Source: Candidatus Moraniibacteriota bacterium (GTDB lineage Bacteria > Patescibacteriota > Minisyncoccia > Moranbacterales > UBA1568). Taken from it: a stretch of DNA of 64,000 nucleotides. Numbering within the stretch: position 1 is the stretch's first letter; every line of letters starts with the position of its first letter. The stretch spans positions 11,467-75,466 of the forward strand of contig JAHFON010000002.1 in assembly GCA_023261695.1 (NCBI GenBank). The letters are read 5' to 3'. Below the pieces are notes generated by a model. The model searched no databases. It had not been told where the DNA came from and saw nothing but the letters and a program-made list of their open reading frames with translations. Of this stretch, positions 671-54,018 are shown piece by piece. The translations under genes and the position numbers were made by a program.

Positions 671-672
671 CT

Positions 673-2112: not shown

Positions 2113-2285
2113 ATCATGTAGTAATTAAATGACGTATTTCTCTAAAACAGCAAAAAATCCTTTATTTAAGCGGTTAATTAATGTAGCGGGTATGTAGTAA
2201 AATTATGATACTTTATTTACTAATGACGAAAGTAAATAACCATGCCAGCCGCTCGCTATAAGCATTTTTAGACACTTTATTTACT

Positions 2286-11929: not shown

Positions 11930-12900
11930 TCTTGGACAGGGGACGTAAAATACCACAACCCCAGCGTATTGGTAACGGTCATACCAATTTCCAAGAGACG
12001 CACAAAAAATAAGTAACGAGGTGTGGTTTGTAAATAAAATGGAAAGTTACTTGCAACCATAATCGTAACCGAGCAGGAAAACCGTTTTGATGCGGCATAG
12101 GAGGGCGCAACAAAAACGGCGAGTACGTAAGCTCTCGGTGAATAACCGAAAGGAGGCCGATACTGAAAAGTGTCGCCTTTGTCACCTACAACGCAGTAGG
12201 TGAAGACCTTTCGAGCGGTTGGCACGGCTCAGACGACCGAATGGCCCTCGTGTTGCAAAACACGAAGGGCGATGGGGGTCTCAATAGAGGCCACATCGGG
12301 ACCGAGCGACGTCGTGAAGAGATCGGCATTCTCTGGGAGAAACTCCAAGAGTCACTACCCTATCTCGATCACGTCGTGGTCTACGTCGGAGCGTCAGGGT
12401 CGGAGCGAGTCATTGCACTGGCAGCACAGTTGCCTGCGTCAAAGGTCACGTTCGTCGGCTGTGATTGCGGGCTTCCTAACAAGGAGGCTCTCATCCAAGC
12501 GGCTGACTTGGACGATGCGCGGCGGATACTCTGCGAGTGCGGTGGTCGCCGAACCATGAAGTTGCTTTTTCAGAACTTCATGGAAACCGGTGAGCTCCTT
12601 CTGGCTGTGCCAGCCTAGCTCTCGCTCACCAAGAATGGTGCTCTCTGCGGAAGAGGGTTCTGGCAGTAGGCAGTAATCGGTCCTGCCAGAAGCGCTGTCA
12701 AAGGGGAAGCATTCCGCAAGTGCCCGTGCAAACCCAAGCAGGGTTCGCCCTGAGATGTCGCCACCGAAAAGCGCGGCATCGCGAAAGACTAATGCACGGC
12801 TCTACCGTCACTCTAGAACACGAGTCAAAACTGTTTGGTTGCGAGGTAAGCTGGTGGGAATAACTCGCAACCTCTTCCGCAAGGAAGACGGCAAGGTCAA
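11930..12900. other. anomalous GC-rich (~55-58%) hairpin-rich block without convincing coding frame; candidate large structured RNA/leader or horizontally acquired fragment
   Basis: Composition differs sharply from the ~40% GC flanks. Several perfect 8-10 bp hairpins: ggccctcgtg..cacgaagggc, tctggcag..ctgccaga, gttgcgag..ctcgcaac. Only short mutually overlapping ORFs in several frames, none with a Shine-Dalgarno. Confidence 0.3.
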
Positions 12901-39897: not shown

Positions 39898-41430
39898 ATG
39901 ATGCTGAATCTTGTTTACGTTTTTCTTTCGGCTGGATTTTTGGCCGGAGGAGCTATTTTGGGGTATCTGGTTAGACAAAGTGTTGCCAAAAGGCAACTTT
40001 CTACCGCCGAAGGTCAGGCGGCGAAAATGCTAGAAGAGGCCGGAATCAAGGCTAAAGAGATCACGCTGGACGCTAAAAATAAAGCCGTCGAGATTCTTGA
40101 GGAAGTGAAAAAAAATGAAAAAGCGCGCGATGAGAAACTCTTGTTTCAAGAACAGCGCGTTGAGAAACGCGAAGATCAAATCGAAAAGGAAGCGCAAGAA
40201 ATAGATTCTGAAAAACGGCGCTTGTTGCAAAAAGCTGAAGAAATAAAGGCTATCCGCGCGGAAGCGGAAAAATTGCGTCAAGAGGAGTTAGGTTATCTGG
40301 AAAAAATTTCCAAACTTTCCAGGGAAGAGGCGCAGGCAAAAATATTCACCTTGGTGGAAGAAGAGAGTAAGGAGGCTCTGGTGAAGAGAATGTCCAAACT
40401 GGAAAATGAGGGATATGAAGAGCTGGAGAAGAGCGCGCTCAATGTTATGGCGACGGTTATTCAGAAATACGCCCGTTCTCACGTTTCTGAATTTACGACG
40501 ACGACGGTCGCCATTCCTTCTGATGAAGTGAAGGGGAAAATTATCGGTAAAGAAGGCCGGAATATTCGGTCGCTGGAAAAGGAAACCGGCGTGGAATTTA
40601 TCATTGATGATACGCCGGAGACGGTGATTATTTCCGGATTTGATCCGGTGCGCCGTGAAATCGCCCGCATTGCTTTGGAAAAACTGATTGCCGACGGCCG
40701 TATTCATCCGGCGCGCATAGAAGAAATCGCGGAAGCCAGCAAGAAGGAAGTGGATTTGAAAATTAAAGAAGCCGGCGAGGCCGCCGCTTACGATGCCGGT
40801 ATTGCCGGACTGCATCCGAAATTGCTCTATATTCTCGGGCGTTTGCGTTTTCGCTATAGTTATAAACAAAACGTCCTTTTACATTCGCTGGAGGTAGCCT
40901 ATTTGGCCGGAGCTTTGGCATCCGAGCTGGGAGCGGATGTGGCTTGCGCCAAGAAGGCCGGCCTGCTTCATGATATCGGCAAGGCTGTGGATCACGAAAT
41001 TGAAGGGACGCACGTCAAGATTGGTATGCGCATCCTGGAGAAATTCGGCATCGGTCAAAATGTGATTGACGCTATGAAGGCTCATCACGACGAATATCCA
41101 AACCAAACTATAGAGTCGTTTATCGTCACGGCGGCTGATGCTATTTCGGCGGCGCGTCCCGGTGCGCGCAAAGAGACGGCGGAGAAATACATCAAACGTC
41201 TGGAAGAATTGGAAGCGCTGGTTAATTCATATCCGGAAGTGGAGAAGTCTTACGCGATTCAGGCGGGGCGCGAAGTGCGTATTTTCGTCAATCCGGAAAA
41301 AACCGATGACTTGGGCGCTATGAAATTGGCGCGCGACATCGCCAAGCGAATTGAAGAGGAGTTAAAATATCCCGGTGAAATCAAAGTCAACGTGTTTCGC
41401 GAAACGAGGGCGATTGAGTATGCCAGATAA
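39898..41430 (+). CDS. rny: ribonuclease Y
   Basis: N-terminal TM, coiled-coil, KH domain (GKIIGKEGRNIRSLE), HD domain (LLHDIGK). The track ORF begins at 39856, and the Met at 39898 is the likely start. Confidence 0.85.
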   Translation: MMLNLVYVFLSAGFLAGGAILGYLVRQSVAKRQLSTAEGQAAKMLEEAGIKAKEITLDAKNKAVEILEEVKKNEKARDEKLLFQEQRVEKREDQIEKEAQEIDSEKRRLLQKAEEIKAIRAEAEKLRQEELGYLEKISKLSREEAQAKIFTLVEEESKEALVKRMSKLENEGYEELEKSALNVMATVIQKYARSHVSEFTTTTVAIPSDEVKGKIIGKEGRNIRSLEKETGVEFIIDDTPETVIISGFDPVRREIARIALEKLIADGRIHPARIEEIAEASKKEVDLKIKEAGEAAAYDAGIAGLHPKLLYILGRLRFRYSYKQNVLLHSLEVAYLAGALASELGADVACAKKAGLLHDIGKAVDHEIEGTHVKIGMRILEKFGIGQNVIDAMKAHHDEYPNQTIESFIVTAADAISAARPGARKETAEKYIKRLEELEALVNSYPEVEKSYAIQAGREVRIFVNPEKTDDLGAMKLARDIAKRIEEELKYPGEIKVNVFRETRAIEYAR

Positions 41431-41565
41431 TGAAAGTTGCGTGCTTTGGAAAAAAGGCTTAAAATAAAGAGCAGGAAGTCGTAACTAGCACTTTTTCCCA
41501 TATAATGCTTTTTGAAGTAATATAGAGTGGAATCAAGTTCTAAACTAGAAAGGCAGGTGAAAAGT

Positions 41566-41847
41566 ATGAATAATGTCAATAAGGACACGCTGGTTCACAT
41601 GATTATGGAGAAGACCGAGCTTTCCAAGAAAGACGTGGAAGCTGTTTTGGAGTGCTTCGTGGATCAAGTAACCTCGGAACTTAAGAAAGGTAACAAGGTG
41701 ACCCTTACCGGTTTTGGCACGTTTAAGGTTTCCAACCGCGCCGCTCGTGAAGGTATCAACCCGCAGACCAAAGCCAAGATCACGATTCCGGCTATGACCG
41801 TGCCGAAGTTTACAGCCGGCAAGACTTTGAAAGAGGCTGTAAAATAA
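41566..41847 (+). CDS. hup: HU family DNA-binding protein
   Basis: MNNVNKDTLVHMIMEKTELSKKDVEAVLE...GFGTFKVSNRAAREGINPQTKAKITIPAMTVPKF is a classic HU/IHF fold sequence. RBS aggcaggtgaaaagtATG. Confidence 0.8.
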   Translation: MNNVNKDTLVHMIMEKTELSKKDVEAVLECFVDQVTSELKKGNKVTLTGFGTFKVSNRAAREGINPQTKAKITIPAMTVPKFTAGKTLKEAVK

Positions 41848-42007
41848 TTTAAATTCCGTCCAGAGGCGTTTGTTTCGAGGCGGAAAAAAGAAAAAGATAG
41901 AATGACAATCCCGCTTTGGCGGGATTGTCGCTTTGTATCAACAGCAGTGTTTAATGTAAAGTATTTTGGGATTTATTGTATACTATAATATAAAGAGAGG
42001 ATCGTAT

Positions 42008-42078
42008 CGGGGTGTCGTATACCGGCAGTACGCATGCTTTGGGAGCATGTTGACTGGGTTCGATTCCCAGCACCCCGA
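42008..42078 (+). tRNA. tRNA-Pro (anticodon TGG)
   Basis: Hand-folded. Acceptor CGGGGTG/CACCCCG, anticodon stem CATGC/GCATG with loop TTTGGGA, T-arm CTGGGTTCGATTCCCAG. Confidence 0.7.
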
Positions 42079-42199
42079 CTAACAAAGACATTTTGAAAAA
42101 TTTATACCAATCCAAGCAACAGAAACATACTTAGTTTTTAAGTTGATATATGCTTTACGACGAATTCAATTTATATAAAAACTTTGCTAAAACAGCAAT

Positions 42200-43051
42200 A
42201 TGAAAAAAAATAAACCAAAAAATTTAGCGATTTTTGAAGGCAAAAGAGTGCGGCGGATTTGGGATGAGAAAAAGGAAATGTGGTATTTCTCTGTAGTGGA
42301 TATTGTGCAAGTTTTAACCGATCAGCCGAATTATCAATTAGCGAGAAATTATTGGAAAGTGCTAAAAAATCGCTTAAATAAAGAAGGGAGTGAAACGGTT
42401 ACAAAATGTAACCGGTTGAAAATGGAAGCAGAGGACGGAAAATTAAGAGAAACAGATACGGCTGATGTTGAAACATTATTACGCCTAATTCAATCTGTTC
42501 CCAGCCCAAAAGCCGAGCCGATTAAGTTATGGCTTGCCAAAGTCGGTTATGAAAGGATACAGGAAATAAATGATCCGGAAAAAGCACTCAATCGTAGCCG
42601 CGAATACTGGCAAAAAATGGGGCGAAGCGAGAAGTGGATTCAGCAAAGGATGATGGGGCAGGAGATACGGAATAAATTGACGGATTATTGGAAAAATAAT
42701 GAAGTTAAAGAGCAAAGTAAATACGCGATTTTGACGAATATAATCCATCAGGAATGGAGCGATATTTCAGTGAAAGAACATAAAAATTTGAAAAGCTTGA
42801 AAACGGAAAATCTGCGCGATCATATGACGGACGCGGAGCTGGTTTTTACGGCATTGGCGGAATTGTCCACGCGCCAAATCGCCGAAACAATGAAGGCAAA
42901 AGGTTTTGAAGAAAACAAGATTCCTGCCAAAAAAGGCGGAGCGGTTGCCAAGAATGCCAGACTGGAATTGGAGCAAAAGACCGGCAAAAAAATCGTGAGC
43001 GGCGGTAATTTCAAATCATTGCGAGAGCATAAGAAATTAAAAGGCAAATAG
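42200..43051 (+). CDS. DinD-like / Bro-N domain protein (DNA-damage-inducible protein D family)
   Basis: The N-terminal Bro-N-like region (KRVRRIWDEKKEMWYFSVVDIVQVL) and the C-terminal KNLKSL...TELVFTALAELSTRQIAE...KGG pattern resemble E. coli DinD. Confidence 0.5.
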   Translation: MKKNKPKNLAIFEGKRVRRIWDEKKEMWYFSVVDIVQVLTDQPNYQLARNYWKVLKNRLNKEGSETVTKCNRLKMEAEDGKLRETDTADVETLLRLIQSVPSPKAEPIKLWLAKVGYERIQEINDPEKALNRSREYWQKMGRSEKWIQQRMMGQEIRNKLTDYWKNNEVKEQSKYAILTNIIHQEWSDISVKEHKNLKSLKTENLRDHMTDAELVFTALAELSTRQIAETMKAKGFEENKIPAKKGGAVAKNARLELEQKTGKKIVSGGNFKSLREHKKLKGK

Positions 43052-43073
43052 CTCTTTATGCTTTACGAAGATT

Positions 43074-43856
43074 TTGATGCGAAAACTCGAAAGGTGTTCG
43101 GGCGGGTTGTTGGTTGCCGTTTGCCTTGCTATAATGGGCTATATGAATACATATTCCGTCCGTTTGAAAAATAAATATGAGATAGCCGAGCGGACGCTCG
43201 CTTTTGTTTTTGAAAAACCTAAGGGGTTTCAATTTCAAGCCGGGCAATACACGGCTATGACTTTGCCTAAACTGGATTTCGCGGACGCGAAAGGGGCAAC
43301 GCGCGTTCTTTCCATCGCTTCCGCTCCGAGCGACGATGAACTGGTGTTTGGCGCGCGCATTACCGAAAGCGCGTTTAAAAAAACCTTGGCGCAAATGCCC
43401 GTGGGCGGAGAAGTGACGATTCACGAGGCGACGGGGCATTTTGTTTTACCGGAAGATCAAACGCGTGAGATTGTTTTTTTAGCTGGCGGTATCGGCATTA
43501 CTCCGGTGCGGAGTATTTTGCGGCAAGCCTTCGCAGAGAAACGAAACAATCCATTCGTTTTATTTTATTCCAATCGTCGTCCGGGAGACGCGTCATTTTG
43601 CCAAGAGATGCAAAATTTTTCCGGATTGAATTACCGGTGTATTGATACATTGACGCAGAATGAGGGTGTGTGCGACTGGCAGGAGGAATCCGGGTATATC
43701 TGCGCCGCTATGCTGAAAAAATATTTGAAGGAAATTCCGCACGCGCTTTATTATATTGTCGGCGCGACCGGTTTTATTCAAGCGATGGGAAAAATACTTG
43801 AAGAGCTTGGCGTGCCGGATACAAATATCAAGAAAGATCCGTTTACCGGATTATAG
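43074..43856 (+). CDS. FAD/NAD(P)-binding oxidoreductase (ferredoxin-NADP reductase-like fold)
   Basis: FAD_binding_6-like region (FQAGQYTAMTL...RVLSIASAP) and NAD-binding region (LAGGIGITPV). The start may be the internal Met around 43134. Confidence 0.55.
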   Translation: MMRKLERCSGGLLVAVCLAIMGYMNTYSVRLKNKYEIAERTLAFVFEKPKGFQFQAGQYTAMTLPKLDFADAKGATRVLSIASAPSDDELVFGARITESAFKKTLAQMPVGGEVTIHEATGHFVLPEDQTREIVFLAGGIGITPVRSILRQAFAEKRNNPFVLFYSNRRPGDASFCQEMQNFSGLNYRCIDTLTQNEGVCDWQEESGYICAAMLKKYLKEIPHALYYIVGATGFIQAMGKILEELGVPDTNIKKDPFTGL

Positions 43857-43859
43857 ATT

Positions 43860-43933
43860 GCGGGAGTAGCACAATGGTAGTGCACCTGCCTTCCAAGCAG
43901 GGTACGCGGGTTCGATTCCCGTCTCTCGCTCCA
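43860..43933 (+). tRNA. tRNA-Gly (anticodon TCC) with encoded CCA
   Basis: Hand-folded. Acceptor GCGGGAG/CTCTCGC (one G-T pair), anticodon stem CCTGC/GCAGG with loop CTTCCAA, T-arm CGGGTTCGATTCCCG, 3' TCCA. Confidence 0.8.
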
Positions 43934-43936
43934 TAA

Positions 43937-43973
43937 AAACACAGGAGTCCCGCTAAGGACTCCTGTGTTTTAT
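43937..43973 (+). terminator. rho-independent terminator after tRNA-Gly (aacacaggagtcc...ggactcctgtgtt + TTATT)
   Basis: A 13-bp perfect stem. Confidence 0.6.
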
Positions 43974-44245
43974 TGAGCTCAATTCTAAATTTTGCACGAA
44001 CCTACTACGAACGGGAAACTGACCTCGAAAGCGGAAGTTGTTTCGCTGCCGCTCGTCACCCAAAAGAAAAGTTTTGTTCGCTTTTTCTGATGGGCGCGCG
44101 CCCGAGTTTTCTTTCAAAAAGGAAAAGTCAGTTTTTCTGGACTGTTCTGCTCTTTGGAGCAGAGTGGCGTGGCCGTCTGCTTATTCCAGTATACCAGAAT
44201 ATCTAAAGTTTAGATATTTACTTTCCGTATATATGCTGATAGTAT

Positions 44246-44467
44246 ATGGACAAGACAATACAGACAAAAGAATACGCACGATTTATCGAGAAATTGCACA
44301 AAGCAAGGCTTGAGGCTAGTTTGAAACAGATCGAGGTTGCCAAGAAGCTCAAGCGTCCGCAATCCTATATTTCTCGCGTGGAATCCGGGGAGTATCGTCT
44401 TGATATTCTTGAGGTGAAGCGATTTGCAAAGATTTATGGAAAGAGCGTTGATTATTTTGTGAAGTAG
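44246..44467 (+). CDS. XRE-family helix-turn-helix transcriptional regulator
   Basis: HTH_3 pattern LKQIEVAKKLKRPQSYISRVESGE. 73 aa. Confidence 0.75.
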   Translation: MDKTIQTKEYARFIEKLHKARLEASLKQIEVAKKLKRPQSYISRVESGEYRLDILEVKRFAKIYGKSVDYFVK

Positions 44468-44468
44468 C

Positions 44469-45110
44469 ATGATTACAAAAGTCATCACAGATAAGGATGG
44501 TGAAAGATACATAGGTATCTGTAATCACTGCGGTAATAATACTTCTCAAAAAGTATTGTTTACACATATTGGGTCTGAAATCGCATATATACCAAATGGG
44601 GATGAAGTCAGTTTTGAAGTTGAATATCGACTCACAGAATGTGGGACTTGCGAAAATATATCGCTTTATGGAAAACCGGAATTTGATGATCATCTCTTCG
44701 GTCACGTGCTCTATCCACGACAAAGTAATTTATCAAGTTCTATCCCTGCAGAGATACGCAAAGTCTATGATGAAGCAAAATTAATATCAAAATTAGCCCC
44801 GAATGCCTTTGCAGTCCAGATTCGCCGCGCGCTGGAATTTCTTTGTAAGGATAAAAAAATAAGTGGGAAGAATTTAAGTGGACAACTAAAGGAGATGGCT
44901 AAACAGGGATTGATTCCACCTATCTTGGCAACGATGACTGATGGCATTCGTATCTTAGGTAATATTGGAGCACATGCCTCTAACATGGGGGTTAAATCAG
45001 AGGATATCTCTCTTATAGATGATTTTTTCAAAGCGATTTTAGAGTATGTTTATGTAGCCCCAAACAAGATAGAGGTTTTTAAGAAGCGTTTGGGCGAAAT
45101 AAAGAAGTAG
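44469..45110 (+). CDS. DUF4145-domain protein with N-terminal Cys4 zinc-ribbon-like region
   Basis: C-terminal IRRALEFLCKD...ILGNIGAHAS resembles DUF4145. N-terminal C..C(x~35)C..C. The start is 2 nt after the XRE stop codon. Confidence 0.5.
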   Translation: MITKVITDKDGERYIGICNHCGNNTSQKVLFTHIGSEIAYIPNGDEVSFEVEYRLTECGTCENISLYGKPEFDDHLFGHVLYPRQSNLSSSIPAEIRKVYDEAKLISKLAPNAFAVQIRRALEFLCKDKKISGKNLSGQLKEMAKQGLIPPILATMTDGIRILGNIGAHASNMGVKSEDISLIDDFFKAILEYVYVAPNKIEVFKKRLGEIKK

Positions 45111-45151
45111 TAGCAATTTTTTTATATCTCGTTTATTTTCCGAAAATAGCT

Positions 45152-45352
45152 ATGAGCGAACCATATACTTTCAAAAGTTTTCTCGGTCGGAATTGGTGGT
45201 TTCTTGTTATTGGGCTTTTTAGTGCCCTACGACAATCACAAAGAGAAAGTGTTTCAGGATCTATTGTGTTAGATGCGCTTTTTGGTGAGGGAATTATTTT
45301 GGTGATGATGTTTGCTTATTGGTTTGTTAGGTATGGCAGAAAATTAGAATAA
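45152..45352 (+). CDS. hypothetical small two-TM protein
   Basis: ORF with two hydrophobic helices. Confidence 0.3.
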   Translation: MSEPYTFKSFLGRNWWFLVIGLFSALRQSQRESVSGSIVLDALFGEGIILVMMFAYWFVRYGRKLE

Positions 45353-45356
45353 TTAT

Positions 45357-46019
45357 ATGGGGCTATTCAACTTTAACAGCTACAATCAGATTGAACAGGG
45401 ATTGTTAGACATATATTCTTTAATGTTGACAGCAAGTGGTATTGATAAAGAAGAGGCGAAAAAAATGATTGAGGATATGCTTAACACAGCTATCGAGCAA
45501 TCCAAAAAAGGGGGAAACTATTTTCTTCCTCAAAATTTAGGGAGCATTATTGTGGGGGAAGCCGAAACGGACGATCAGGGTATACAGAAATATACGCAAG
45601 CTCTTAGAGAAAGGATGCCCCAGAATGAGGGAATAAGCTTAGATGATATACGGATGTGGTGGAATTTGAATGATGTGGAGCGTCGTATGATACAAATGCA
45701 GGACATGGCTACGAAATCAACAGCGATGTTCGGATTTTTGAAATCAGGAATGGCTTCTAGCCCAGAGCAAGCAATTGCTATGGTTTGTAAAATTCATCCA
45801 GTCTACGGAAACCCGAATGACAATAGTCAGAGCAGTGGGGATGATCGGCCACTACCTTACGAGCTGAAAGATAGAATAAATATTTACATTCAAAAAAGGT
45901 CGGTCAAGGTTCGGAAGAGTACAAAAAAGAAATGGAGCAGTCATCCTCTTTCAATGCCTTGGTTCGAAAAGAAATTAGAAATGATAATTTATGATTGGTG
46001 GAAAAATAAACATTATTGA
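45357..46019 (+). CDS. hypothetical protein
   Basis: ORF track. 5-nt gap from the previous ORF. Confidence 0.4.
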   Translation: MGLFNFNSYNQIEQGLLDIYSLMLTASGIDKEEAKKMIEDMLNTAIEQSKKGGNYFLPQNLGSIIVGEAETDDQGIQKYTQALRERMPQNEGISLDDIRMWWNLNDVERRMIQMQDMATKSTAMFGFLKSGMASSPEQAIAMVCKIHPVYGNPNDNSQSSGDDRPLPYELKDRINIYIQKRSVKVRKSTKKKWSSHPLSMPWFEKKLEMIIYDWWKNKHY

Positions 46020-46135
46020 AGTACCTATTTGGATTATCGGCTGTGTTATTGCTTACAAAACAGACCTTTTTAAATTGGATGGGGCTTTTGGTATAGGAAA
46101 TAAAAAGGTATAACAACTCAAAATTTCAAAAATAT

Positions 46136-46858
46136 ATGAAAAAATGTCCATTTTGTGCAGAAGAAATTCAAGATAATGCTAAAAAATGCAGGTATTGTGG
46201 AGAATGGATTACAGCTCAATTGGGTAATAGTGATGATAAAGAAAAAACCAGTGACAGAGAAGTTAGGAAGTTAAATAAAGAATTCGTTTTTTGGAAAACT
46301 TTTGTGTGGTCAACGCTGGTTGTAGCGGTTATTTTTGTGATTCTGTTTGGATTTATTGGTGAACTTAAGAATGATACTACAGATGCATTACTTGGAATTT
46401 TAATTATTTCTGGGCTTATAGGGGTGTTAATTACTTTTATCATCAAGGGTCTTAGGGGTGGGAAAAAAGAGGATGGTCTCGAATTAACTACTGAAGAAAT
46501 TTCTAAATATAACGGACTTGCAGGCTGGCTTTTTTTGGTTGCACTTGGATTAGTTATAAGTTTTTTTAGAATTTCTTCAAATGTTTCTATGCTGAATGGT
46601 AGTATCGATAAGGTATTTAATGGGATTTTCGCAATATTTATTGCTTATGTTTTGTATCTATTCTTTGCTAAGAAAAAGAAGTTTAAGCCATTTTTTATTG
46701 CGTTTATTGTTATTAATTTATTATTTGCGACACTAGCTGTTATTACAGATAATAGTGGTGAAATAATGAAGGATTTTTTTGCATCAATAGTTTCTTTGAT
46801 GATCTGGATTCCATATATAATTAAATCAAAGCGAGTCAGGGCAACTTTTATAGAATAA
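46136..46858 (+). CDS. membrane protein with N-terminal zinc-ribbon (CPFC...CRYC) and four TM helices
   Basis: MKKCPFCAEEIQDNAKKCRYCGEW followed by hydrophobic helices. Confidence 0.5.
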   Translation: MKKCPFCAEEIQDNAKKCRYCGEWITAQLGNSDDKEKTSDREVRKLNKEFVFWKTFVWSTLVVAVIFVILFGFIGELKNDTTDALLGILIISGLIGVLITFIIKGLRGGKKEDGLELTTEEISKYNGLAGWLFLVALGLVISFFRISSNVSMLNGSIDKVFNGIFAIFIAYVLYLFFAKKKKFKPFFIAFIVINLLFATLAVITDNSGEIMKDFFASIVSLMIWIPYIIKSKRVRATFIE

Positions 46859-46888
46859 CTCGTTAGATTTTGAGGTAAAGTATTTATT

Positions 46889-47689
46889 ATGACAAATATA
46901 GCGCTAACGGCAGTAAAAAGGGTATTTAGAAATGCAGATGATGTGCAGAGCTTCTTCGATAATATGCTTAAAGCTACATTGACATATAAATTCAAAGAAC
47001 TAACCAAGGATAATCCCAAAGTATTGATAAATAGTAAAGATTTGACGGAGGCTATTTTTACGCTAACAGCCAAGGATAAAATTGAAATTTATAATCAGAC
47101 AATCAGCGGGTTAAGAATAAAGGAGCTTTTTATTGCAACAATTTATTTGAAGTATCTTGTATCCACTTTGAAAAAAGAGATTATTTTGGTAGCCTTTCCT
47201 TTTCAAGAAGAATACTACGATATTGCTTTCTTTGTTATAGAAGAAGCGACTTATGCTGTTTTGGGTAGTAAATTTCATATACCCGAAAATTCAACGGCTT
47301 ACTATATTCAAATCAAGGAGGATTTTGACTATGAAGAATACAAAAAATTCAATGAGTCAAATGAGCCTAAAAAATTTGATTCCCAAAAAATTAAAGATAC
47401 CGCTTCAAAATATACTGACGTCCTCGCTCTCTTTTTCAGCAGAAACTATGCCTTATTTGAATCAGGAAACATAACATCTTTTTTAGATAAGAACAGAAAT
47501 GTAGGAATTATTTTAATGCCGTCTTTGGCTAACCCAGAAATTGAATTAACAGGAGGAAAAGATAAGGGCAAAAAAATCCCACTGGATAAGGACAAATATA
47601 ACTTTCTATTGGAAACAGGGGGTAAAACTGTTCATATAAAATTCAGCGTTCCAAAATTTATGGAAAAAACTGATCCTCCTCAAAATTGA
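46889..47689 (+). CDS. hypothetical protein
   Basis: ORF track. Confidence 0.4.
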   Translation: MTNIALTAVKRVFRNADDVQSFFDNMLKATLTYKFKELTKDNPKVLINSKDLTEAIFTLTAKDKIEIYNQTISGLRIKELFIATIYLKYLVSTLKKEIILVAFPFQEEYYDIAFFVIEEATYAVLGSKFHIPENSTAYYIQIKEDFDYEEYKKFNESNEPKKFDSQKIKDTASKYTDVLALFFSRNYALFESGNITSFLDKNRNVGIILMPSLANPEIELTGGKDKGKKIPLDKDKYNFLLETGGKTVHIKFSVPKFMEKTDPPQN

Positions 47690-47822
47690 AAGCTCCGATT
47701 TTAACTATTGCCATATTTATGTTAAAATATGCATAAAGAAATAACCACTTGTTTGTGGCTGTATTTATTGACAAATCCATTGGATTTACATAAAATAAAA
47801 AACCAAACTTAATACAACTACT

Positions 47823-48308
47823 ATGTCTATTAAAAAAACAACCCATTCCGCGTTAGAAGTCGGCTTGTATTTTTTGTATTTAGCCAATCAGTCAGGAAAG
47901 AAAATTACCAATAAAAAAATGCAAAAGCTTGTTTATTATGCACAAGCTTGGTCTTTGGTTGTAAATAATAAGAAGCTTTTTGGGGATAAAATTGAAGCTT
48001 GGGTTCACGGTCCAGCTGTAAGAAGTTTATATGTCAAATATAAAGAATTTGGTTTCAATCCAATAATTAAGGAGATTGATCAACAAACAGCAGAAGTATT
48101 TTCAACAAAAGACAAAAAGCTTATAGATCAGGTATGGAGCTTGTATGGATCGCTGGACGCCGGATATCTTGAAATGCTTACTCACTCCGAAAGACCGTGG
48201 CAGGAAGCAAGAGAGGGACTTCAAAGTTCTGAAAGTTCAAGCAGCGAAATATCTACGAAGATAATGAAGGAGTTTTATTCCGAAAAGCTTCAAGAGGCTA
48301 AAAAGTAA
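47823..48308 (+). CDS. Panacea-domain (DUF4065, SocA/GepA-like) antitoxin-type protein
   Basis: MQKLVYYAQAWSLVVNNKKLFGDKIEAWVHGPAVRSLYVKYKEFG matches the DUF4065 consensus. Confidence 0.65.
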   Translation: MSIKKTTHSALEVGLYFLYLANQSGKKITNKKMQKLVYYAQAWSLVVNNKKLFGDKIEAWVHGPAVRSLYVKYKEFGFNPIIKEIDQQTAEVFSTKDKKLIDQVWSLYGSLDAGYLEMLTHSERPWQEAREGLQSSESSSSEISTKIMKEFYSEKLQEAKK

Positions 48309-48314
48309 AATTAT

Positions 48315-48755
48315 ATGGTAGATATACCTAATGAGGTAACTCAAATGCAAAATGACGGTGATATACCAAAGACTGTCGCAGAGTTACCACAAGATTCTGA
48401 TGTATCAGAAGTTGAACCCTATAAAATATCCTTTTCCAAATATAATAATAAGCTTTGCGAAATTTCTGAATTAGGAAAAAACAAGGGCAATAAGGCACTT
48501 ACCATTCTCAAAGAAATTGGAACAAAGGTATTTTCCAGGGCAGATTTCCAAAAACACAACATTCAAACAAAAGGAATTTCTTATGACGGAGCTTACAAGC
48601 CTCTTTATAGTAAGATTGCTGATGGCATAGAAATCAAGGAGCTTTTTTTACAAGGGACTGGTCGTATTTTTTATTTTGACATTGAACCGGAAAGAATGCT
48701 TTATATTGTTGCTATCAAGGAGAATCATTTTGAAACTGAAAAAGTAAGGCGATGA
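48315..48755 (+). CDS. putative RelE/HigB (Gp49-like) family toxin
   Basis: C-terminal QGTGRIFYFDIEPERMLYIVAIKENHFE resembles the HigB/Gp49 beta-strand core. Lies 6 nt downstream of the Panacea gene. Confidence 0.4.
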   Translation: MVDIPNEVTQMQNDGDIPKTVAELPQDSDVSEVEPYKISFSKYNNKLCEISELGKNKGNKALTILKEIGTKVFSRADFQKHNIQTKGISYDGAYKPLYSKIADGIEIKELFLQGTGRIFYFDIEPERMLYIVAIKENHFETEKVRR

Positions 48756-48923
48756 AAGTATTATGCTTGTGTACTTAAATTAAGGACATAAATGTATTCT
48801 CGCGTATTCATAAAGAAAGTTCTAACTTCCTCCACAGTCCGGCTCCATAAATAAAAAAATGGCTCCGCGGGACAGATGTCACACGCGGAGCCGGAACGGG
48901 GTTGACTGAGGACTTAACTTCGA

Positions 48924-49424
48924 TCAGAGAAAACGGCCGCGATAACGCGGTCTTTCGTCTTTGACGACAAGCCAGAGGCCGTTTTCGGCGGCCACTGACC
49001 AGCTCAATCCAGGTTTCCAAGTGCCGTCTTTATTACATAGGCAGGCTATACGGCGCACGCCGTTGTGGGACATCTCCCATTCTGATGTCCCAAAAAAGAC
49101 GAATTTCGCTTCCGGCCGGTTGTTATCCGGCACGGGAAATCTTTTTTGGAAGCTTTCCCAGGCTTGTCCTTCCAAAAGTCGCCCGCCCAATTTTTTGGCT
49201 TCCACTTGCGCTTGAGCGAGATTTGTGACGCCGAAATATTGCAACGTCACGTTTGTATATATAGACCGCCCCTCAAAGTAGGGGCCGATAAAAGCGCACT
49301 CGCCCTTGTTAATGCCCGCGAGTTCCGCCAGAACAGCTGGTTCTCTATAGATCACATCCAGCTGAAATTCCTCGCCGATCTTTGGCAGAAATGCGTGCCT
49401 GTGAGATTCAAGCAATTGTGTCAT
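48924..49424 (-). CDS. hypothetical protein in GC-rich patch
   Basis: ORF. Followed by a strong hairpin ggctccgcg...cgcggagcc at 48862-48897. Confidence 0.4.
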   Translation of the reverse strand: MTQLLESHRHAFLPKIGEEFQLDVIYREPAVLAELAGINKGECAFIGPYFEGRSIYTNVTLQYFGVTNLAQAQVEAKKLGGRLLEGQAWESFQKRFPVPDNNRPEAKFVFFGTSEWEMSHNGVRRIACLCNKDGTWKPGLSWSVAAENGLWLVVKDERPRYRGRFL

Positions 49425-49619
49425 CAGTCGCCCCTTTCATTGGTTGCGGCTTTCCCTATCTCGCTTTGGAGAATGGGGAATGAGCCAGGTTTTAGAGCCT
49501 CAAAGATAAGATGTCAAAGGACAGCAAAGTAATGTAATATCAAAATTGGCAATTTGTCAATCTCAAGTCCCAGTTTTTTGTTTATTTAACGGGTGATATA
49601 ATACGCTCATCTTTCTGAA

Positions 49620-50876
49620 ATGACTATGTGGCAATTTTATTTTCTTAAACTGCGACAGATATTTTCCAAGAAGATTTTTTGGAGCGTAATTTTGGGAATT
49701 AGCGTTTTCGCGGCCGGCGCTTATTTTTTTCAACGGAGTTATTTCGCCGATGTTTTGAAAAAAAAGAACGTTTTGGAAAAAGAAAGCGCGCTTTCCGATT
49801 GGGTGGATGAATCGCCTGTGTTTGACGCGCAAGATGTTTCGCCCAATGGCGGGGAAGAAATTTTTCCCGCGCCCCCGCCTCCTCCTCCGTCAATGGAACG
49901 CATGAAAAAACAAGGCTGTGTGGCGGACGGCTTTCTCTCCGGTTACGGAGGCGATATCAATAGCTCCATCGCTTTGATCAATCGCTCGCAGTGTTATTAT
50001 TTGCATCGGGCGCTGGAGACGTGGTTGCGGCCGCCGGATTTCAAATTGGCGCGCAAAATTATGAGCAAGGTGACGAAACCCAACACGGTATACGGGATGT
50101 TTATAGCGGAGGCTATAGACACCAAAGCCAATTATTTTTATCCGGCGGGGAAACGCGACTTCAATTTTGACGAGATGTGCGCTGTAGGCAGTAAAAATTA
50201 TTGGGGAGAACACACGTGCAAACCTTCGTTTACGCGCAAAGAATATCGAAAATACGTTCAATACATTGCTGAACAGGCGATGGATTTGGGCATCCAGAGT
50301 TTTATTTTTGGGCAGGTGTTTTATCAGGATGGAGGGGATACGGCGCCGGAGATTATGGCTGAAGTAATCCGTGATATGCGCGAGTACGCTGATTTTCGCG
50401 GTATGAAAATTGTAATTGGCGCGCAGACCAACGACATCACGGATGAAAAATATTTGCGTCTGTTTGATTATATTGAAGGCGGTGTGGGGCTGCAGAGCGA
50501 CGGCAGTATTGAAGACGGACCTTGCTTTTCGCGCTGGTGGCAGAAGCCGGGTGATTGGTGCTGGGCGCTTCTCTGGCATCCGGATTTTTTGAACAAAGCC
50601 AACAATGTTTTCACGCATTTTGATTGGAGCGGAAAAATGGGGGATGATATGAGTGTTTTCACGCGTATGGATCAGGATCAACGCGAGACAACCTTGCGCC
50701 GCCTCCATAATTATTTCACTGATCGCAACGTGGGATTTCTGATGCCCCTTCTAGCCACACTGCATCGGGACAACGGCGGTTGCAGCGGACCGAAAAAACG
50801 CTTTTATTCGGCGAGCAAAAAGTATTCCTGCGCGGACGAAGATGCGATTAACCAGATTATTTCCGGCAAAAAATAA
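49620..50876 (+). CDS. hypothetical membrane-anchored/secreted protein (possible TIM-barrel hydrolase-like)
   Basis: N-terminal TM and a poly-Pro linker (PAPPPPPPS). Confidence 0.4.
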   Translation: MTMWQFYFLKLRQIFSKKIFWSVILGISVFAAGAYFFQRSYFADVLKKKNVLEKESALSDWVDESPVFDAQDVSPNGGEEIFPAPPPPPPSMERMKKQGCVADGFLSGYGGDINSSIALINRSQCYYLHRALETWLRPPDFKLARKIMSKVTKPNTVYGMFIAEAIDTKANYFYPAGKRDFNFDEMCAVGSKNYWGEHTCKPSFTRKEYRKYVQYIAEQAMDLGIQSFIFGQVFYQDGGDTAPEIMAEVIRDMREYADFRGMKIVIGAQTNDITDEKYLRLFDYIEGGVGLQSDGSIEDGPCFSRWWQKPGDWCWALLWHPDFLNKANNVFTHFDWSGKMGDDMSVFTRMDQDQRETTLRRLHNYFTDRNVGFLMPLLATLHRDNGGCSGPKKRFYSASKKYSCADEDAINQIISGKK

Positions 50877-50917
50877 ATCTCGTCAATTGGCCGCTAAGTT
50901 TTGCATTATGTGGTACA

Positions 50918-51253
50918 ATGCGTTTAAGTTTTGCGATGTCACAATTTCAGAATAAAATATTTCAGCGGCGCAAGGAGGATTTCATCTGCGAACAATGCGG
51001 CGAGTTTGTCGGCGGCGACGGCTACACGAATCATTGCCCGAAATGTCTGTATAGCAAGCACGTAGACATTTTTCCGGGAGACCGCCAGGCGCCGTGCGGA
51101 GGACTGATGCGGCCGGTGGTATTTGAACAGAGTCGGGGCGGATATTCTCTTACGCATCGTTGTATTTCTTGCGGATACATGAAAAAAAACAAAACCGCCA
51201 AAGACGATGATTTTGAAACACTGGTTGCGCTTTCATGCAGTCTTATTGGCTAG
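50918..51253 (+). CDS. RNHCP domain protein
   Basis: YTNHCPKCLYSKHVD...CISCGY matches the RNHCP zinc-binding motif. The start may be the Met at 50936. Confidence 0.5.
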   Translation: MRLSFAMSQFQNKIFQRRKEDFICEQCGEFVGGDGYTNHCPKCLYSKHVDIFPGDRQAPCGGLMRPVVFEQSRGGYSLTHRCISCGYMKKNKTAKDDDFETLVALSCSLIG

Positions 51254-51277
51254 CGGTTCAAATAAATACAAAATGTT

Positions 51278-53845
51278 ATGGTGTGGAAAAAGTTTTCTTC
51301 AGAAGACTTAGCTCAAGTTTTCGCTGAACTGCAAAGCTCTGCGGCGGGATTGTCTACCTCTGCGGCGGCGGAACGTTTGCGGATCACGGGAGAAAACAGA
51401 TTAGAAGAAGAGTCTTTTTCTCTTATCAAGCTGATCAAGCGGCGCGCGCATTCTTCTTTTTTGTATCTGCTGTTGGCGGCGGCGTTACTTTCCTATTTTC
51501 TGGGAGAACATTTGGAAGCCTTGCTAATTTTGATTTTTATCACGATCAATGTCTCGCTTGAGACATATCAGGAATATCATTCCGAGAAAGTAACACGACT
51601 TCTCAAGCGCTATCTCGTGGCCTATGCGCGCGTGCGCCGCGATGGCAAAATAGTAGCCGTGGAAAGTAAAGAGATTGTTCCAGGGGACATTCTGCTGGTG
51701 GAAGCCGGTGACCGCTTGTCCGCGGATGTGCGTTTTATTGTTACTCGGGGATTGGAAATAGATGAAAGTTTACTGACCGGAGAATCGGCGGCTATCAGTA
51801 AGTCGACGGCCGCCTTGAATGTGCTGCCGACCGAAATGTATGAAGCGCAGAATATCGGTTTTGCCGGTACGGCCGTGACAGCCGGCCGAGGAGAAGCGGT
51901 GGTTTTGGCGACAGCCGGAGAAACAGCCTTAGGAGAAGTCTCTTCTTTGACAGCCGGGAACGGACACAAGACGGAATTTGAAAAATGGATTGAGGAATTC
52001 AGCCGCTTTATACTCAAGTTTGTTATTTTGACGCTGGCGTTTGTTTTTATTGCTAATATTCTGATTAAAGGAAACGGTATTGATATACCAGCCCTCCTCA
52101 TTTTTTCTTTGGCGCTGGCTGTGTCGGCGGTTCCCGAAGCTTTGCCGATTATTGTTACGGTGGCTTTTGCTCGCGGATCATTGAGACTGGCTCAAAAAAA
52201 AGTGATCGTGAAACGGCCGTCAGCCATAGAAGATTTGGGCAGTATTGAAGTCTTGTGTGTGGATAAAACGGGAACGCTTACGGAAAATATCTTGTCTGTC
52301 AGTCAGGTGAAGGCAAAAAATGAGGAAGAATGTCTGAAGCTGGCTTTTCTGTCTGCTTTGGAAACGCCCGATCATCACGGCAACCTTCATGATGCTTTTG
52401 ACTTGGCATTGTGGCGGAAACTTTCTCCTCAAGCGCGCTTGGTCGCTCAGAAGTCGCGGCGCCTAGATAGCATACCGTTTGATCCGGAGCGTCGCCGCAA
52501 TAGCGTTCTGCTCCAAATGGCGGATGGGAAAAAAGAAATTGTGGTGAGGGGAGCGCCGGAAGAAATTATCCGACTTTCTAGTAATTTGGATGCGTACACG
52601 GCAAAAAATTTGATGCACTGGATGGGAGAGGCGGGACATAAAGGCGAGCGTGTTTTAGCAGTAGCTCGCAAGCCGCTTTTACGCGAACAGCAACTGACTC
52701 TTTATCAGGAACAGCATTTGGAATTTATCGGTCTTATTTCTTTCGCCGACACATTGAAGAAAACAGCCAAAGAAACTATCGCGCAAGCTCAAGAATTCAA
52801 TATACAGGTGAAAATTTTGACAGGAGATAGCCTGGAAGTGGCGGGCGCTGTGGGTTGTGCCGTCGGTTTACTCAATCGTCCAGAAGCGGTTGTGACAGGC
52901 AAGAAGCTTACTTCAATGGCGTATGAAGAACGCCGCCGGGCTATTTTTTCGGGATCTGTTTTTGCGAGAATTTCTCCAAGTGAGAAGCACGAGATTGTCA
53001 AAATTATTCAAGAAAAATATATAGTGGGATTTTTGGGCGAGGGCATCAATGATGCTCCCGCGCTCAAAGCGGCCAATGTCGGACTGGTCGTGCAGGGAGC
53101 TTCCGATATAGCGCGGGAAGCGGCGGATGTCGTGTTGTTGCAGAAAAGTTTGGAAACCGTGATTGACGGCGTGAAAGAAGGACGCGTGATTTTTGCGAAC
53201 ATTTTCAAATATATAAAAATCACCCTCACATCTAATTTTGGCAACTTTTATTCCGTGGCTTTGGCCTCGCTGTTTATGCCGTTTATTCCGCTTCTGCCTA
53301 TCCAAATTCTTTTGCTGAATCTTTTGTCAGATTTTCCGATGCTTGCCATAGCCACTGATACGGTAGATGCGGAGAAGAAAGAAAGCTCAAAAAATTACCA
53401 AGCGCACTCCATTATATTGGCCGCTATTTTGCTGGGCGGAGTGAGTTCATTGTTTGATTTTATGTTGTTTGGAATTTTCGCGCGAGTTTCTCCTCAGGTC
53501 TTGCAGACAGCCTGGTTTATTTTGAGCGTGATAACGGAAGTGTTTCTGATTTTCTCTTTGCGCACGCGGTTAGTTTTTTTCCGCGCGCGCCGGCCGTCTT
53601 TTATGTTGATATTTTTTTCGCTAGTTATTTTGGCGGTTACCGTCTTAATTCCATTTGTTCCTTGGGGAGCCGGTACTTTTCATTTTATCCAGCCGAACAT
53701 TTCTTTTATGCTGATTATAATGAGTCTGGCCGTCGGTTATTTCATAGCCACGGAGTTAGTGAAACACTTGTATTACAATCATCTTAATGGGCGGCGTGTT
53801 TCGCACGGAAAAATCAGCGGGCAAAAAATATTAGTCAGCGCGTAA
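51278..53845 (+). CDS. cation-transporting P-type ATPase (P2/P3 type, Ca2+/Mg2+-like)
   Basis: CVDKTGTLT phosphorylation motif, TGES-like region, GEGINDAPALKAANVG hinge, 10 TM pattern. 855 aa. Confidence 0.85.
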   Translation: MVWKKFSSEDLAQVFAELQSSAAGLSTSAAAERLRITGENRLEEESFSLIKLIKRRAHSSFLYLLLAAALLSYFLGEHLEALLILIFITINVSLETYQEYHSEKVTRLLKRYLVAYARVRRDGKIVAVESKEIVPGDILLVEAGDRLSADVRFIVTRGLEIDESLLTGESAAISKSTAALNVLPTEMYEAQNIGFAGTAVTAGRGEAVVLATAGETALGEVSSLTAGNGHKTEFEKWIEEFSRFILKFVILTLAFVFIANILIKGNGIDIPALLIFSLALAVSAVPEALPIIVTVAFARGSLRLAQKKVIVKRPSAIEDLGSIEVLCVDKTGTLTENILSVSQVKAKNEEECLKLAFLSALETPDHHGNLHDAFDLALWRKLSPQARLVAQKSRRLDSIPFDPERRRNSVLLQMADGKKEIVVRGAPEEIIRLSSNLDAYTAKNLMHWMGEAGHKGERVLAVARKPLLREQQLTLYQEQHLEFIGLISFADTLKKTAKETIAQAQEFNIQVKILTGDSLEVAGAVGCAVGLLNRPEAVVTGKKLTSMAYEERRRAIFSGSVFARISPSEKHEIVKIIQEKYIVGFLGEGINDAPALKAANVGLVVQGASDIAREAADVVLLQKSLETVIDGVKEGRVIFANIFKYIKITLTSNFGNFYSVALASLFMPFIPLLPIQILLLNLLSDFPMLAIATDTVDAEKKESSKNYQAHSIILAAILLGGVSSLFDFMLFGIFARVSPQVLQTAWFILSVITEVFLIFSLRTRLVFFRARRPSFMLIFFSLVILAVTVLIPFVPWGAGTFHFIQPNISFMLIIMSLAVGYFIATELVKHLYYNHLNGRRVSHGKISGQKILVSA

Positions 53846-54018
53846 AATTCTCTTCTTTATTTTTTGCGGCCATAAAAGTGGAAGAACCCGGAATCGTGGC
53901 TCGCGACTCCGGGTTCTTTGCGCGTGGGCGTTACCACGCTGGGCGGTCAGCACGCAGGGGACGTGCCTTTTATTACTATCAATGTAGCACGGGGAAGATA
54001 TTTTTGTAAAGTCTCGTT

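Follow-up and report, generated by a model that had tools for sequence, protein, structure and literature searches.

The subject of this report is the interval 42008-51253 of a 64,000-nt stretch of DNA from a Candidatus Moraniibacteriota bacterium (GenBank assembly GCA_023261695.1, contig JAHFON010000002.1, positions 11,467 to 75,466 of the forward strand). The whole stretch is hereafter called the window, and its first letter is position 1. An initial annotation, made from the sequence alone, had described this interval as one accessory island of about 9 kb, flanked by tRNA genes and packed with defence and toxin-antitoxin (TA) genes. Synteny with related loci contradicts that description: the interval contains two separate variable slots (~1.1 kb and ~5.6 kb) set in a conserved backbone. 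Taken as a whole, we consider it likely that the interval consists of a conserved chromosomal backbone with two hypervariable slots, each starting directly 3' of a tRNA gene, and that these slots hold horizontally acquired AT-rich genes from several sources. The slots here carry phage-defence and TA genes, mostly of known kinds, and the locus is a small and ordinary defence hotspot.

The landmarks of the backbone and its slots are as follows.

42008-42079, plus strand: tRNA-Pro(tgg), called by ARAGORN and Rfam; conserved left border of slot A
42080-43142, no strand: slot A, variable, ~1.1 kb, with one cargo gene here
43143-43856, plus strand: FNR-like flavin reductase of 237 amino acids (aa), core gene (Pfam NAD_binding_1, E 2.6e-15)
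43860-43933, plus strand: tRNA-Gly(tcc), called by ARAGORN and Rfam; conserved left border of slot B
43934 to ~49570: slot B, variable, ~5.6 kb, with a low-GC mosaic at 44200-48860 inside it
43936-43971, plus strand: perfect 15-bp hairpin with a T-run, directly after tRNA-Gly
49620-50876, plus strand: membrane-anchored or secreted protein of 418 aa, core gene; right border of slot B
50918-51253, plus strand: RNHCP protein, core gene (Pfam, E 3.8e-28), syntenic in 7 loci
51278-53845: P-type ATPase (Pfam)

Conserved backbone and variable slots

For comparison, we used 54 related loci recovered by a metagenome scan anchored on RNase Y (50-94% RNase Y identity), on which the window proteins were placed by tblastn and the tRNAs were mapped. 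The conserved order is iPGM (minus strand), RNase Y, HU, tRNA-Pro(tgg), the FNR-like gene, tRNA-Gly(tcc), the gene for the 418-aa protein, RNHCP, the P-type ATPase and a class II aminoacyl-tRNA synthetase (minus strand). Wherever a contig extends far enough, the backbone genes are seen: tRNA-Pro follows HU in 30 related loci, the FNR-like gene sits between the two tRNA genes in 28, the 418-aa protein is found in 11 (53-73% identity) and RNHCP in 7, with the 418-aa gene always immediately before RNHCP where the locus extends that far. In relatives whose RNase Y is 69-88% identical, the arrangement and placement of the FNR-like protein, the 418-aa protein and RNHCP are unchanged. Because this order is conserved, we regard all three as core genes, although the initial annotation had listed them, the 418-aa protein as ‘secreted’, among the genes of the island. 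It was right that both tRNA genes are present, but tRNA-Gly is not an internal feature of an island; it forms the left border of slot B.

The slots themselves vary greatly in size and content. Among relatives, slot A (tRNA-Pro to the FNR-like gene) ranges from 9 to 4326 bp, and slot B (tRNA-Gly to the 418-aa gene) from 61 bp to more than 7000 bp. Three relatives (L013, L055 and L060) have both slots almost empty with the backbone intact. In L008, the closest relative (RNase Y 88% identical), slot A is nearly empty and the FNR-like gene begins 26 nt after tRNA-Pro; in L014, slot B is empty or nearly so. For the ten cargo genes of the window, not one homologue occurs at the locus in the 54 relatives, which bears out the broader proposal of the initial annotation that variable accessory DNA enriched in defence and TA modules lies by these tRNA genes. 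Ten relatives carry a CofD gene in slot A instead, and NUDIX, radical SAM, HAD and Band 7 genes are found among the other slot contents. Slot B of L015 and L044 holds a DUF4143 ATPase that corresponds to the PADLOC candidate PDC-S01 (E 8e-118), and slot B of L029 holds an AbiEi-HATPase-DUF4325 protein.

The same division appears in base composition. Against a window background GC content of ~0.44-0.51, GC falls to 0.27-0.40 over ~44200-48850, with breaks at ~44200 and ~48850. The initial annotation had placed a GC anomaly at 48800-49560. This stretch is instead a return to normal composition, since 48850-49450 has a GC content of 0.50-0.53, near or slightly above background and conspicuous only against the adjoining AT-rich block, which is the true anomaly. 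Rfam searches of the whole window (gathering score) and of slot B (E up to 1) returned tRNAs only, and the GC-rich stretch corresponds to no known RNA gene. GC content at third codon positions (GC3) is 0.23-0.43 in the cargo genes (the Bro-N gene, and the DUF4145 gene through the 146-aa toxin gene) versus 0.48-0.60 in core genes. The FNR-like gene (0.50), the 418-aa gene (0.53), RNHCP (0.51) and a minus-strand orphan gene of 166 aa (0.55) fall in the core class. For the first three of these, conserved order combined with core-like composition is the very pattern that the initial annotation had named as refuting its island. The 267 bp adjoining tRNA-Gly (43934-44200) likewise have a core-like GC content. 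Overall GC varies from 0.31 to 0.40 among the cargo genes, which argues for several acquisitions.

With these data in hand, it is very improbable that a single island of ~9 kb, reaching from tRNA-Pro to the P-type ATPase, was gained as one unit. Such an event would agree with the tRNA genes at and within the interval, with the density of defence and TA genes and with the GC content lowered across much of the interval. However, the FNR-like gene, the 418-aa gene and RNHCP are syntenic in relatives (28, 11 and 7 loci, respectively) and have GC3 values of 0.50-0.53, neither of the latter two nor the FNR-like protein matches a PADLOC model, three relatives keep the backbone with near-empty slots, and the gene-to-gene differences in cargo GC point to more than one acquisition.

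It is also important to ask whether the junctions are real. Contigs of the same strain, identical to the window, were found in two metagenome samples. An assembly chimera, in which AT-rich foreign DNA was joined at tRNA genes during metagenome assembly or binning, could be suspected from the short-read unitigs of SRR14366796, which break within tRNA-Pro and tRNA-Gly (L080, 42027-43914; L001, from 43885), and from the ENA contig L002, which stops at 48864, at the GC jump. Yet L002, from another sample and another assembler, covers 41235-48864 unbroken, beginning at RNase Y and taking in both tRNAs and slot B, and L001 covers 43885-54936, from within tRNA-Gly across the right junction. Both are 99.99-100% identical to the window, and between them these independent contigs cross every junction at least once, so that a chimera is the least probable of all the explanations considered here. 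As a separate observation, contigs of independent assemblies have ends inside tRNA-Pro, inside tRNA-Gly (43885-43914, the 30-nt overlap of L080 and L001) and at the hairpin at 48861 (L002). These ends could derive from shared tRNA k-mers or from strain heterogeneity where the slots begin and end.

Exact look-ups of the FNR-like and 418-aa proteins for island-free variants of the strain returned the same strain only. A scan of genome contigs with the FNR-like protein yielded, among the matches listed, Patescibacteria and Acidiferrales proteins of 34-40% identity in unrelated contexts, which are of no use for synteny. The nearest FNR-like proteins and many of the cargo homologues come from Patescibacteria, and by themselves make it probable that the genome belongs to this group (CPR).

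Several details of the backbone deserve mention. The hairpin after tRNA-Gly is likely the terminator of that gene, in agreement with the strong terminator noted by the initial annotation. Pfam domains likewise bear out its FNR-like and RNHCP assignments. Alignment with L008 places the start of the FNR-like gene at 43143 rather than at an upstream TTG. Boxes resembling -10 elements lie only 0-7 nt before the ATG of the FNR-like gene (43121-43145, TGCTATAAT) and of the XRE gene described below (44225-44248, TAGTAT), with no obvious Shine-Dalgarno sequence, which suggests that both transcripts are leaderless. In L008, a GGAAAGG leader precedes the FNR-like gene. The promoter region of the 418-aa gene is conserved among relatives. 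A 60% identical homologue of the 418-aa protein is present in contig L066 (11936-12907), 4 kb from a relative of the 266-aa orphan protein described below, on a contig that also has serine recombinase, SNase, CAP, SIMPL and amidase genes. Therefore, the 418-aa family is not limited to the conserved backbone position.

A Bro-N gene in slot A

Slot A holds a single cargo gene, with an imperfect repeat around it.

42149-42166 and 43057-43074, plus strand: imperfect 18-nt direct repeat, TATGCTTTACGACGAATT (left) and TATGCTTTACGAAGATTT (right), matching at 16/18 positions with the first 12 nt exact
42200-43051, plus strand: Bro-N domain protein of 283 aa, PADLOC candidate PDC-S13 (Pfam Bro-N, E 1.9e-7); GC 0.40, GC3 0.43

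The protein matches the PDC-S13 profile over positions 4-274 of 286 (PADLOC, E 8.5e-122, 404 bits) and phrog_15286 (E 2.2e-92). Homologues of ~50% identity occur on plasmids of Bacteroidota, Campylobacterota, Chloroflexota and others, where they are named Bro-N or antirepressor. The initial annotation had called this gene ‘DinD/Bro-N-like’. Pfam supports the Bro-N half of the label, while ‘DinD’ was not confirmed, given that NCBIfam yields no match and that the homologues carry only the other two names. We predict a DNA-binding protein, which should be regarded as a candidate defence gene only. The left copy of the 18-nt repeat lies 34 nt before the start codon and the right copy 5 nt after the stop codon. 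The repeat might be a chance match or an insertion scar; what it means is uncertain, as the region is rich in repeats of such length, which arise by chance.

A RAZR-like effector coupled to an XRE regulator

Slot B would comprise three recognisable units: an XRE regulator with a RAZR-type effector, a PanA antitoxin with a toxin, and a set of orphan genes. The first unit lies nearest to tRNA-Gly.

44246-44467, plus strand: XRE-family helix-turn-helix (HTH) regulator of 73 aa (HTH_3, E 5.8e-11; weak PADLOC matches to capH and control-protein models)
44469-45110, plus strand: putative RAZR (PD-T7-4) homologue of 213 aa (Pfam DUF4145, E 4.8e-18)

The TAG stop codon of the XRE gene and the ATG of the DUF4145 gene are 1 nt apart, and the two genes are translationally coupled, as the initial annotation had proposed. 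The DUF4145 protein matches the PADLOC model PD-T7-4 over profile positions 16-189 of 211 (E 6.8e-17). This system has been renamed RAZR, the ring-activated zinc-finger RNase of Escherichia coli (Nature 2026, PMC13017515; PDB 9y9c). The E. coli protein combines a Cys4 zinc-finger domain with a DUF4145 RNase domain, which is a divergent HEPN domain in which R146 and H154 are required (PMC13017515). It forms a 24-mer around ring-shaped phage proteins including portals, cuts single-stranded RNA and halts translation (PMC13017515).

Both sequence features of RAZR, a zinc ribbon and a DUF4145/HEPN domain with a catalytic Arg/His pair, are present here in one protein of the expected size (213 aa versus 219 aa in RAZR; ~210-220 aa for the architecture). 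The N-terminal Cys4 zinc ribbon is formed by C18, C21, C58 and C61 (CNHC at 18-21, CGTC at 58-61), of which the second CxxC aligns with that of RAZR. In a phmmer comparison with the solved chain PDB 9y9c (E 7.3e-5), the C-terminal RILGNIGAH (R161..H169) aligns with RIVGNQAVH, thereby placing the R-x7-H pair on the catalytic R146/H154 of RAZR. Judged from these sequence features, the DUF4145 protein is a distant but architecturally complete RAZR homologue. It gave no match against viral contigs.

By analogy with E. coli RAZR, the zinc ribbon of the homologue would bind to phage proteins that form rings, for example portals. An oligomer would result and switch on the HEPN RNase (R161/H169), and cleavage of single-stranded RNA would then stop translation and abort the infection. 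The XRE protein presumably holds expression low. The homologue differs from the characterised system in several respects: its host is an uncultured bacterium, a coupled XRE gene precedes it, whereas E. coli RAZR acts as a single gene, and its zinc-ribbon domain is unrelated in sequence to the domain that sets the trigger specificity of RAZR. Because of this last difference, the phage trigger of the homologue is not predictable.

A PanA antitoxin with a RelE-fold partner

The second unit lies towards the right end of the low-GC block.

47768-47796, plus strand: promoter-like site upstream of the Panacea gene (TTGACA, 17 nt, TAAAAT; 11/12, a consensus match only)
47823-48308, plus strand: PanA antitoxin of 161 aa with a SocA_Panacea domain (PF13274, E 2.7e-22, 80 bits versus a cut-off of 25.7; phrog_1281, E 1.3e-45)
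48315-48755, plus strand: toxin candidate of 146 aa with a predicted RelE/HigB/YoeB fold, of a family not in Pfam

Only 6 nt separate the two genes. The initial annotation had read them as a Panacea antitoxin with a HigB/Gp49-like toxin. The first identification holds, and the second agrees with the predicted fold but not with any profile, because at E up to 0.01 the 146-aa protein has no match among the families of Pfam, PADLOC, PHROG and NCBIfam, and it matches no PDB sequence. Pfam likewise finds no domain in any of its 86 homologues. For two of these homologues (P0038 and P0076) five contexts were recovered, and in these the 146-aa gene comes after a 161-aa Panacea gene. The neighbours are not the same for the two: restriction-modification (RM) and ParB genes surround one, integrases and a transposase the second. 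Together, the Panacea gene and the 146-aa gene make up a conserved mobile pair.

An AlphaFold model built from 46 sequences (mean pLDDT score of 74) predicts disorder for the first 29 residues, followed by the compact alpha/beta fold of the RelE/ParE superfamily, in which N-terminal helices pack on an antiparallel beta-sheet. The ranking in a Foldseek search agrees with a RelE/HigB-like fold, with weak matches of E 0.01 or worse. Residues E109, Q113, R117, Y120, H138 and E140 are invariant in the family, and R145 and R146 are nearly so. As in RelE/HigB/YoeB toxins, conserved basic, histidine and acidic residues (R117, H138, E140, R145 and R146) cluster near the C-terminus. In contrast to those toxins, the protein shares only 8-18% identity with solved members, matches no profile of theirs and is paired with PanA rather than with RelB, HigA or YefM. 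On the strength of the model, it appears to be RelE/HigB-like by fold only and not a member of a described sequence family, and it is probably a ribosome-dependent mRNA endonuclease.

PanA proteins are known to pair with mRNA-interferase-like and ParE-type toxins (PNAS 2022, PMC8832971). The present pair resembles such PanAT modules in that a Panacea/DUF4065 protein is encoded immediately upstream of a small same-strand partner, and in that the pair is kept in unrelated contexts. It differs in that the partner matches no Pfam toxin model and carries an N-terminal extension of ~30 residues that is predicted to be disordered. We propose that PanA would neutralise the RelE/HigB-fold toxin through direct binding, and that the two would form a type II TA pair with its own promoter-like site.

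Orphan genes of slot B

The remaining cargo genes fill the space between these two units and beyond the second.

45152-45352, plus strand: orphan of 66 aa with two hydrophobic segments; no family match in Pfam, PADLOC, NCBIfam or PHROG; called as a gene in independent assemblies
45357-46019, plus strand: orphan of 220 aa, of a family with more than 173 members whose homologues stand alone in varied contexts
46136-46858, plus strand: zinc-ribbon and DUF2569 membrane protein of 240 aa (DUF2569, E 4.3e-19); GC3 0.23
46889-47689, plus strand: orphan of 266 aa, of a rare family with the motif FPFxEExYDIAFF...YYIQIKE
48861-48892, minus strand: hairpin with a 9-bp stem, followed by a T-run on the minus strand, beside the open reading frame (ORF) 48924-49424
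48924-49424, minus strand: orphan of 166 aa, absent from the relatives' loci; GC 0.51

No Pfam match was found for four genes of the slot (66, 220, 266 and 146 aa). The four co-directional genes seen by the initial annotation, including a zinc-ribbon membrane protein, are present as described: in the 240-aa protein the DUF2569 domain is accompanied by a visible CxxC..CxxC pattern, and zinc-ribbon models score below their cut-offs. The 66-aa and 220-aa genes were considered as a recurring pair and rejected as such, since the small upstream gene in L073 is unrelated. The 3' end of the 220-aa gene is frameshifted in an A6 run at 45893-45898, and the conserved C-terminus of the family (..GSEEYKKEMEQSSSFNALVRKEIRNDNL) lies in another frame that ends at 45992. 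The frameshift is identical in two independent short-read assemblies.

The 266-aa protein has just 13 homologues (38-77% identity), and it is 71-77% identical to proteins of other contigs, one of which is named as Desulfobacter postgatei. A fold search gave only weak matches, to PD-(D/E)xK nucleases. Elsewhere, its relatives are the middle gene of a trio (270 aa, 262 aa and Abi_C) beside RM genes, in integrase-bearing RM islands.

RLLEGQA..FGGSEW is a motif common to the 166-aa orphan and its 46 distant homologues. The gene has a promoter-like site of its own (49560 to 49531, minus strand), and the hairpin at 48861-48892 is likely its terminator. Here the initial annotation had proposed a GC-rich orphan on the opposite strand with a 9-bp-stem hairpin. 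The ORF and the hairpin are both as proposed, and its GC content is not anomalous.

Defence content of the slots

The initial annotation had suggested a PADLOC-style profile check, in which two genes found models: the Bro-N gene (PDC-S13) and the DUF4145 gene (PD-T7-4). Together with the PanAT pair these matches lie inside 6.7 kb, and other defence cargo occupies the same site in relatives, which is what marks the locus as a defence hotspot.

We find it improbable that the variable genes are ordinary lineage-specific accessory genes without a role in phage defence, whose model matches would come simply from the wide distribution of HTH, HEPN-like, Bro-N and similar domains. This idea draws on the fact that PDC-S13 is unvalidated, on the five of ten cargo genes that have no family assignment, and on the housekeeping-type genes (CofD, NUDIX, HAD and radical SAM) in the slots of relatives. 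However, the DUF4145 protein matches PD-T7-4 near full length and retains both the Cys4 ribbon and the R..H pair known from RAZR, which has been characterised by experiment. Moreover, the PanA-toxin pair travels together in the company of RM systems and integrases, the genes for relatives of the 266-aa protein lie between RM genes and an Abi_C gene, and PDC-S01 is present in slot B of a relative.

Arrival of the cargo

Two sequence features near the right edge of the low-GC block bear on how the cargo of slot B arrived.

43928-43937 (left) and 48842-48851 (right), plus strand: 10-nt direct repeat GCTCCATAAA, exact, or 13/16 if extended
48808-48846, plus strand: conserved non-coding element of 37-39 nt with a 29-nt exact core, AAGTTCTAACTTCCTCCACAGTCCGGCTC, at 48817-48845; also in L066 (8873-8911), L068 (8595-8633) and L081 (11595-11633)

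The non-coding element is identical at 36-38 of 39 positions across three lineages, which makes it more conserved than the adjoining genes. In all three, a co-directional gene array precedes it, with 30-50 nt between the last gene and the element, and the sequences diverge directly beyond it. It is also found downstream of Abi_C in the contigs that encode relatives of the 266-aa protein. The element belongs to no known Rfam family, and its 29-nt and 22-nt cores gave no match against viral contigs. Two identities were considered for it and rejected. It is not a 3' fragment of a tRNA or tmRNA, given that ARAGORN calls nothing and the spacing is not compatible with a T-arm and an acceptor stem. 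Nor is it the end of the integrase-bearing element, because two versions of that contig (A and B) remain identical for another ~370 nt and diverge near 12000. Just before this divergence, L081 has a tRNA-like stretch (11875-12005) in which GGACGTC can pair with GGCGTCC, followed by A, and in which a terminator hairpin comes after a ..GAGTCCCGCC.. segment. The stretch, in which neither ARAGORN nor Rfam makes a call, may be a degenerate tRNA or an att remnant at the end of the element.

A blastn comparison of the window with the contigs encoding 266-aa relatives reveals homology at 46880-47673 (77-79%) and at 48809-48859 (94%), with none between. The gap is filled by PanA and its toxin in the window versus Abi_C in the other contigs. 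Since the flanks match and the middle differs, two different abortive-infection-type modules occupy the same position. The shared homology stops at 48859, where the GC content jumps. The 266-aa relatives lie on an element of ~12 kb (L081-L087) with two tyrosine integrases, a small terminase, an HTH_36 protein, an IstB-like protein and RM genes, which indicates that such cargo is mobilised by integrases elsewhere. The likeness of slot B to this RM/Abi_C element consists of the common 266-aa gene (77-79% nucleotide identity) and the 37-39-nt element after the last gene. It differs in that the window is without the integrases, the small terminase, the RM genes, the 270-aa gene and Abi_C. The 270-aa, 262-aa and Abi_C genes (Abi_C of 249 aa) form a conserved cluster in L066-L070 and L081-L087 (for example, L081 9174-11559), adjoining an HsdR-like helicase and an MmeI-type methyltransferase. 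This cluster is possibly an uncharacterised defence module on a satellite-like element.

The left copy of GCTCCATAAA consists of the last 6 nt of tRNA-Gly plus 4 nt, and the right copy lies at the end of the low-GC block. Because the repeat sits at two borders that were defined independently, we consider it plausible that it is an old att-like joint or a microhomology-mediated join.

A number of observations weigh against our overall interpretation of backbone and acquired defence cargo. First, in some relatives GyrB and further housekeeping genes come after tRNA-Gly, which constitutes a break in gene order, and therefore not all the variability of slot B represents island turnover. Second, no integrase, recombinase or transposase domain is found by Pfam in any ORF of 42008-51253, exactly as the initial annotation had remarked. 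Direct repeats of the tRNA 3' ends, which it had recommended as a search target, are also lacking in their longer form: even when up to 3 mismatches are allowed, the terminal 23 nt of neither tRNA recur anywhere in the window, and only the 10-nt repeat at the 3' end of tRNA-Gly and at 48842-48851 was seen. That repeat is short, and by our estimate would arise by chance about once in ten such comparisons if position is disregarded. Third, PDC-S13 is a purely computational candidate, a term absent from the searchable literature. Fourth, the RAZR match is distant (~25% identity, E 7.3e-5 to the solved protein), and no upstream XRE gene is evident in the two plasmid homologues inspected, which rules out the XRE-DUF4145 coupling as a trait of the family. 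Finally, the core-like composition of the 166-aa orphan suggests that this gene may be old resident DNA rather than cargo.

One alternative for slot B, which we hold to be possible though doubtful, is that it is the decayed remnant of one integrative element, satellite-like or prophage-like, that was inserted site-specifically in the 3' end of tRNA-Gly and has lost its integrase end. Such an origin would account for the position of GCTCCATAAA, whose copies overlap the 3' terminus of tRNA-Gly on one side and the right edge of the low-GC block on the other, and for the coincidence of that edge with the end of homology at 48859 and the GC jump. It would also agree with the 266-aa gene and the 37-39-nt element held in common with the ~12-kb integrase-bearing element, and with the matches of three cargo proteins to PHROG families. 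However, integrase fragments were not found and the scant non-coding DNA leaves little room for a hidden one, the repeat is just 10 nt long, and the segment beside the tRNA (43934-44200) has core-like GC. Furthermore, nothing but the 266-aa gene and the short element is common to slot B and the integrase-bearing element, while the GC heterogeneity and the exchange of the PanA-toxin pair for Abi_C point to a stepwise mosaic. A multi-step mosaic therefore fits the heterogeneous GC content better than a single integrase-mediated insertion followed by decay.

For such a mosaic, we infer the following route. Integrative elements that target tRNA 3' ends probably delivered the cargo; these would then have decayed with loss of the integrase, and cassettes would later be swapped by recombination between conserved flanks. 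A more specific and rather unlikely version holds that the 266-aa protein and the 37-39-nt element form a modular defence unit with an exchangeable effector slot, occupied by Abi_C elsewhere and by the PanA/RelE-fold pair here. The element would then be a recombination site or a cassette-boundary site, and the 266-, 220- and 166-aa orphan families would be new defence-associated genes. If true, the exchangeable effector slot would represent a mechanism not described before, by which mobile defence islands exchange their abortive-infection effectors.

A second low-GC block in the window

A second block of low GC content lies at 7-4979 of the window (neighbours to 7928), with a GC content of 0.34-0.39 and a GC3 of 0.29-0.38 over three genes. 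These encode a 153-aa orphan, a protein with Schlafen AlbA_2 and HATPase_c_4 domains (weak PADLOC matches to PDC-S50 and Aga_SIR2), and a ResIII helicase of 897 aa with a match to type III restriction enzyme models (E 3.7e-23). After the block come RmuC and then tRNA-Leu and tRNA-Pro(cgg). This block looks like a further tRNA-adjacent defence patch.

Significance

The locus has much in common with other tRNA-adjacent defence hotspots, including variable content between core genes directly 3' of tRNAs, atypical composition, enrichment in defence and TA genes, and cargo that differs among relatives. It departs from them in its small size (slots of 1.1 kb and 5.6 kb), in being without an integrase or long att repeats, and in that part of the variability among relatives reflects gene-order rearrangement rather than island turnover. 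Hotspots of this kind are already well known, and no new principle emerges from the present example. Its value lies in the separation of core genes from cargo, which provides a cleaner annotation of a defence hotspot in an uncultured bacterium, and in three orphan families and one conserved non-coding element that are cheap candidates for further study. In addition, the predicted homologue described here would extend the recently characterised RAZR effector family to a new lineage, in this case with a coupled XRE regulator, and PanA would gain a new partner in the form of a toxin family with a predicted RelE fold that is absent from Pfam.

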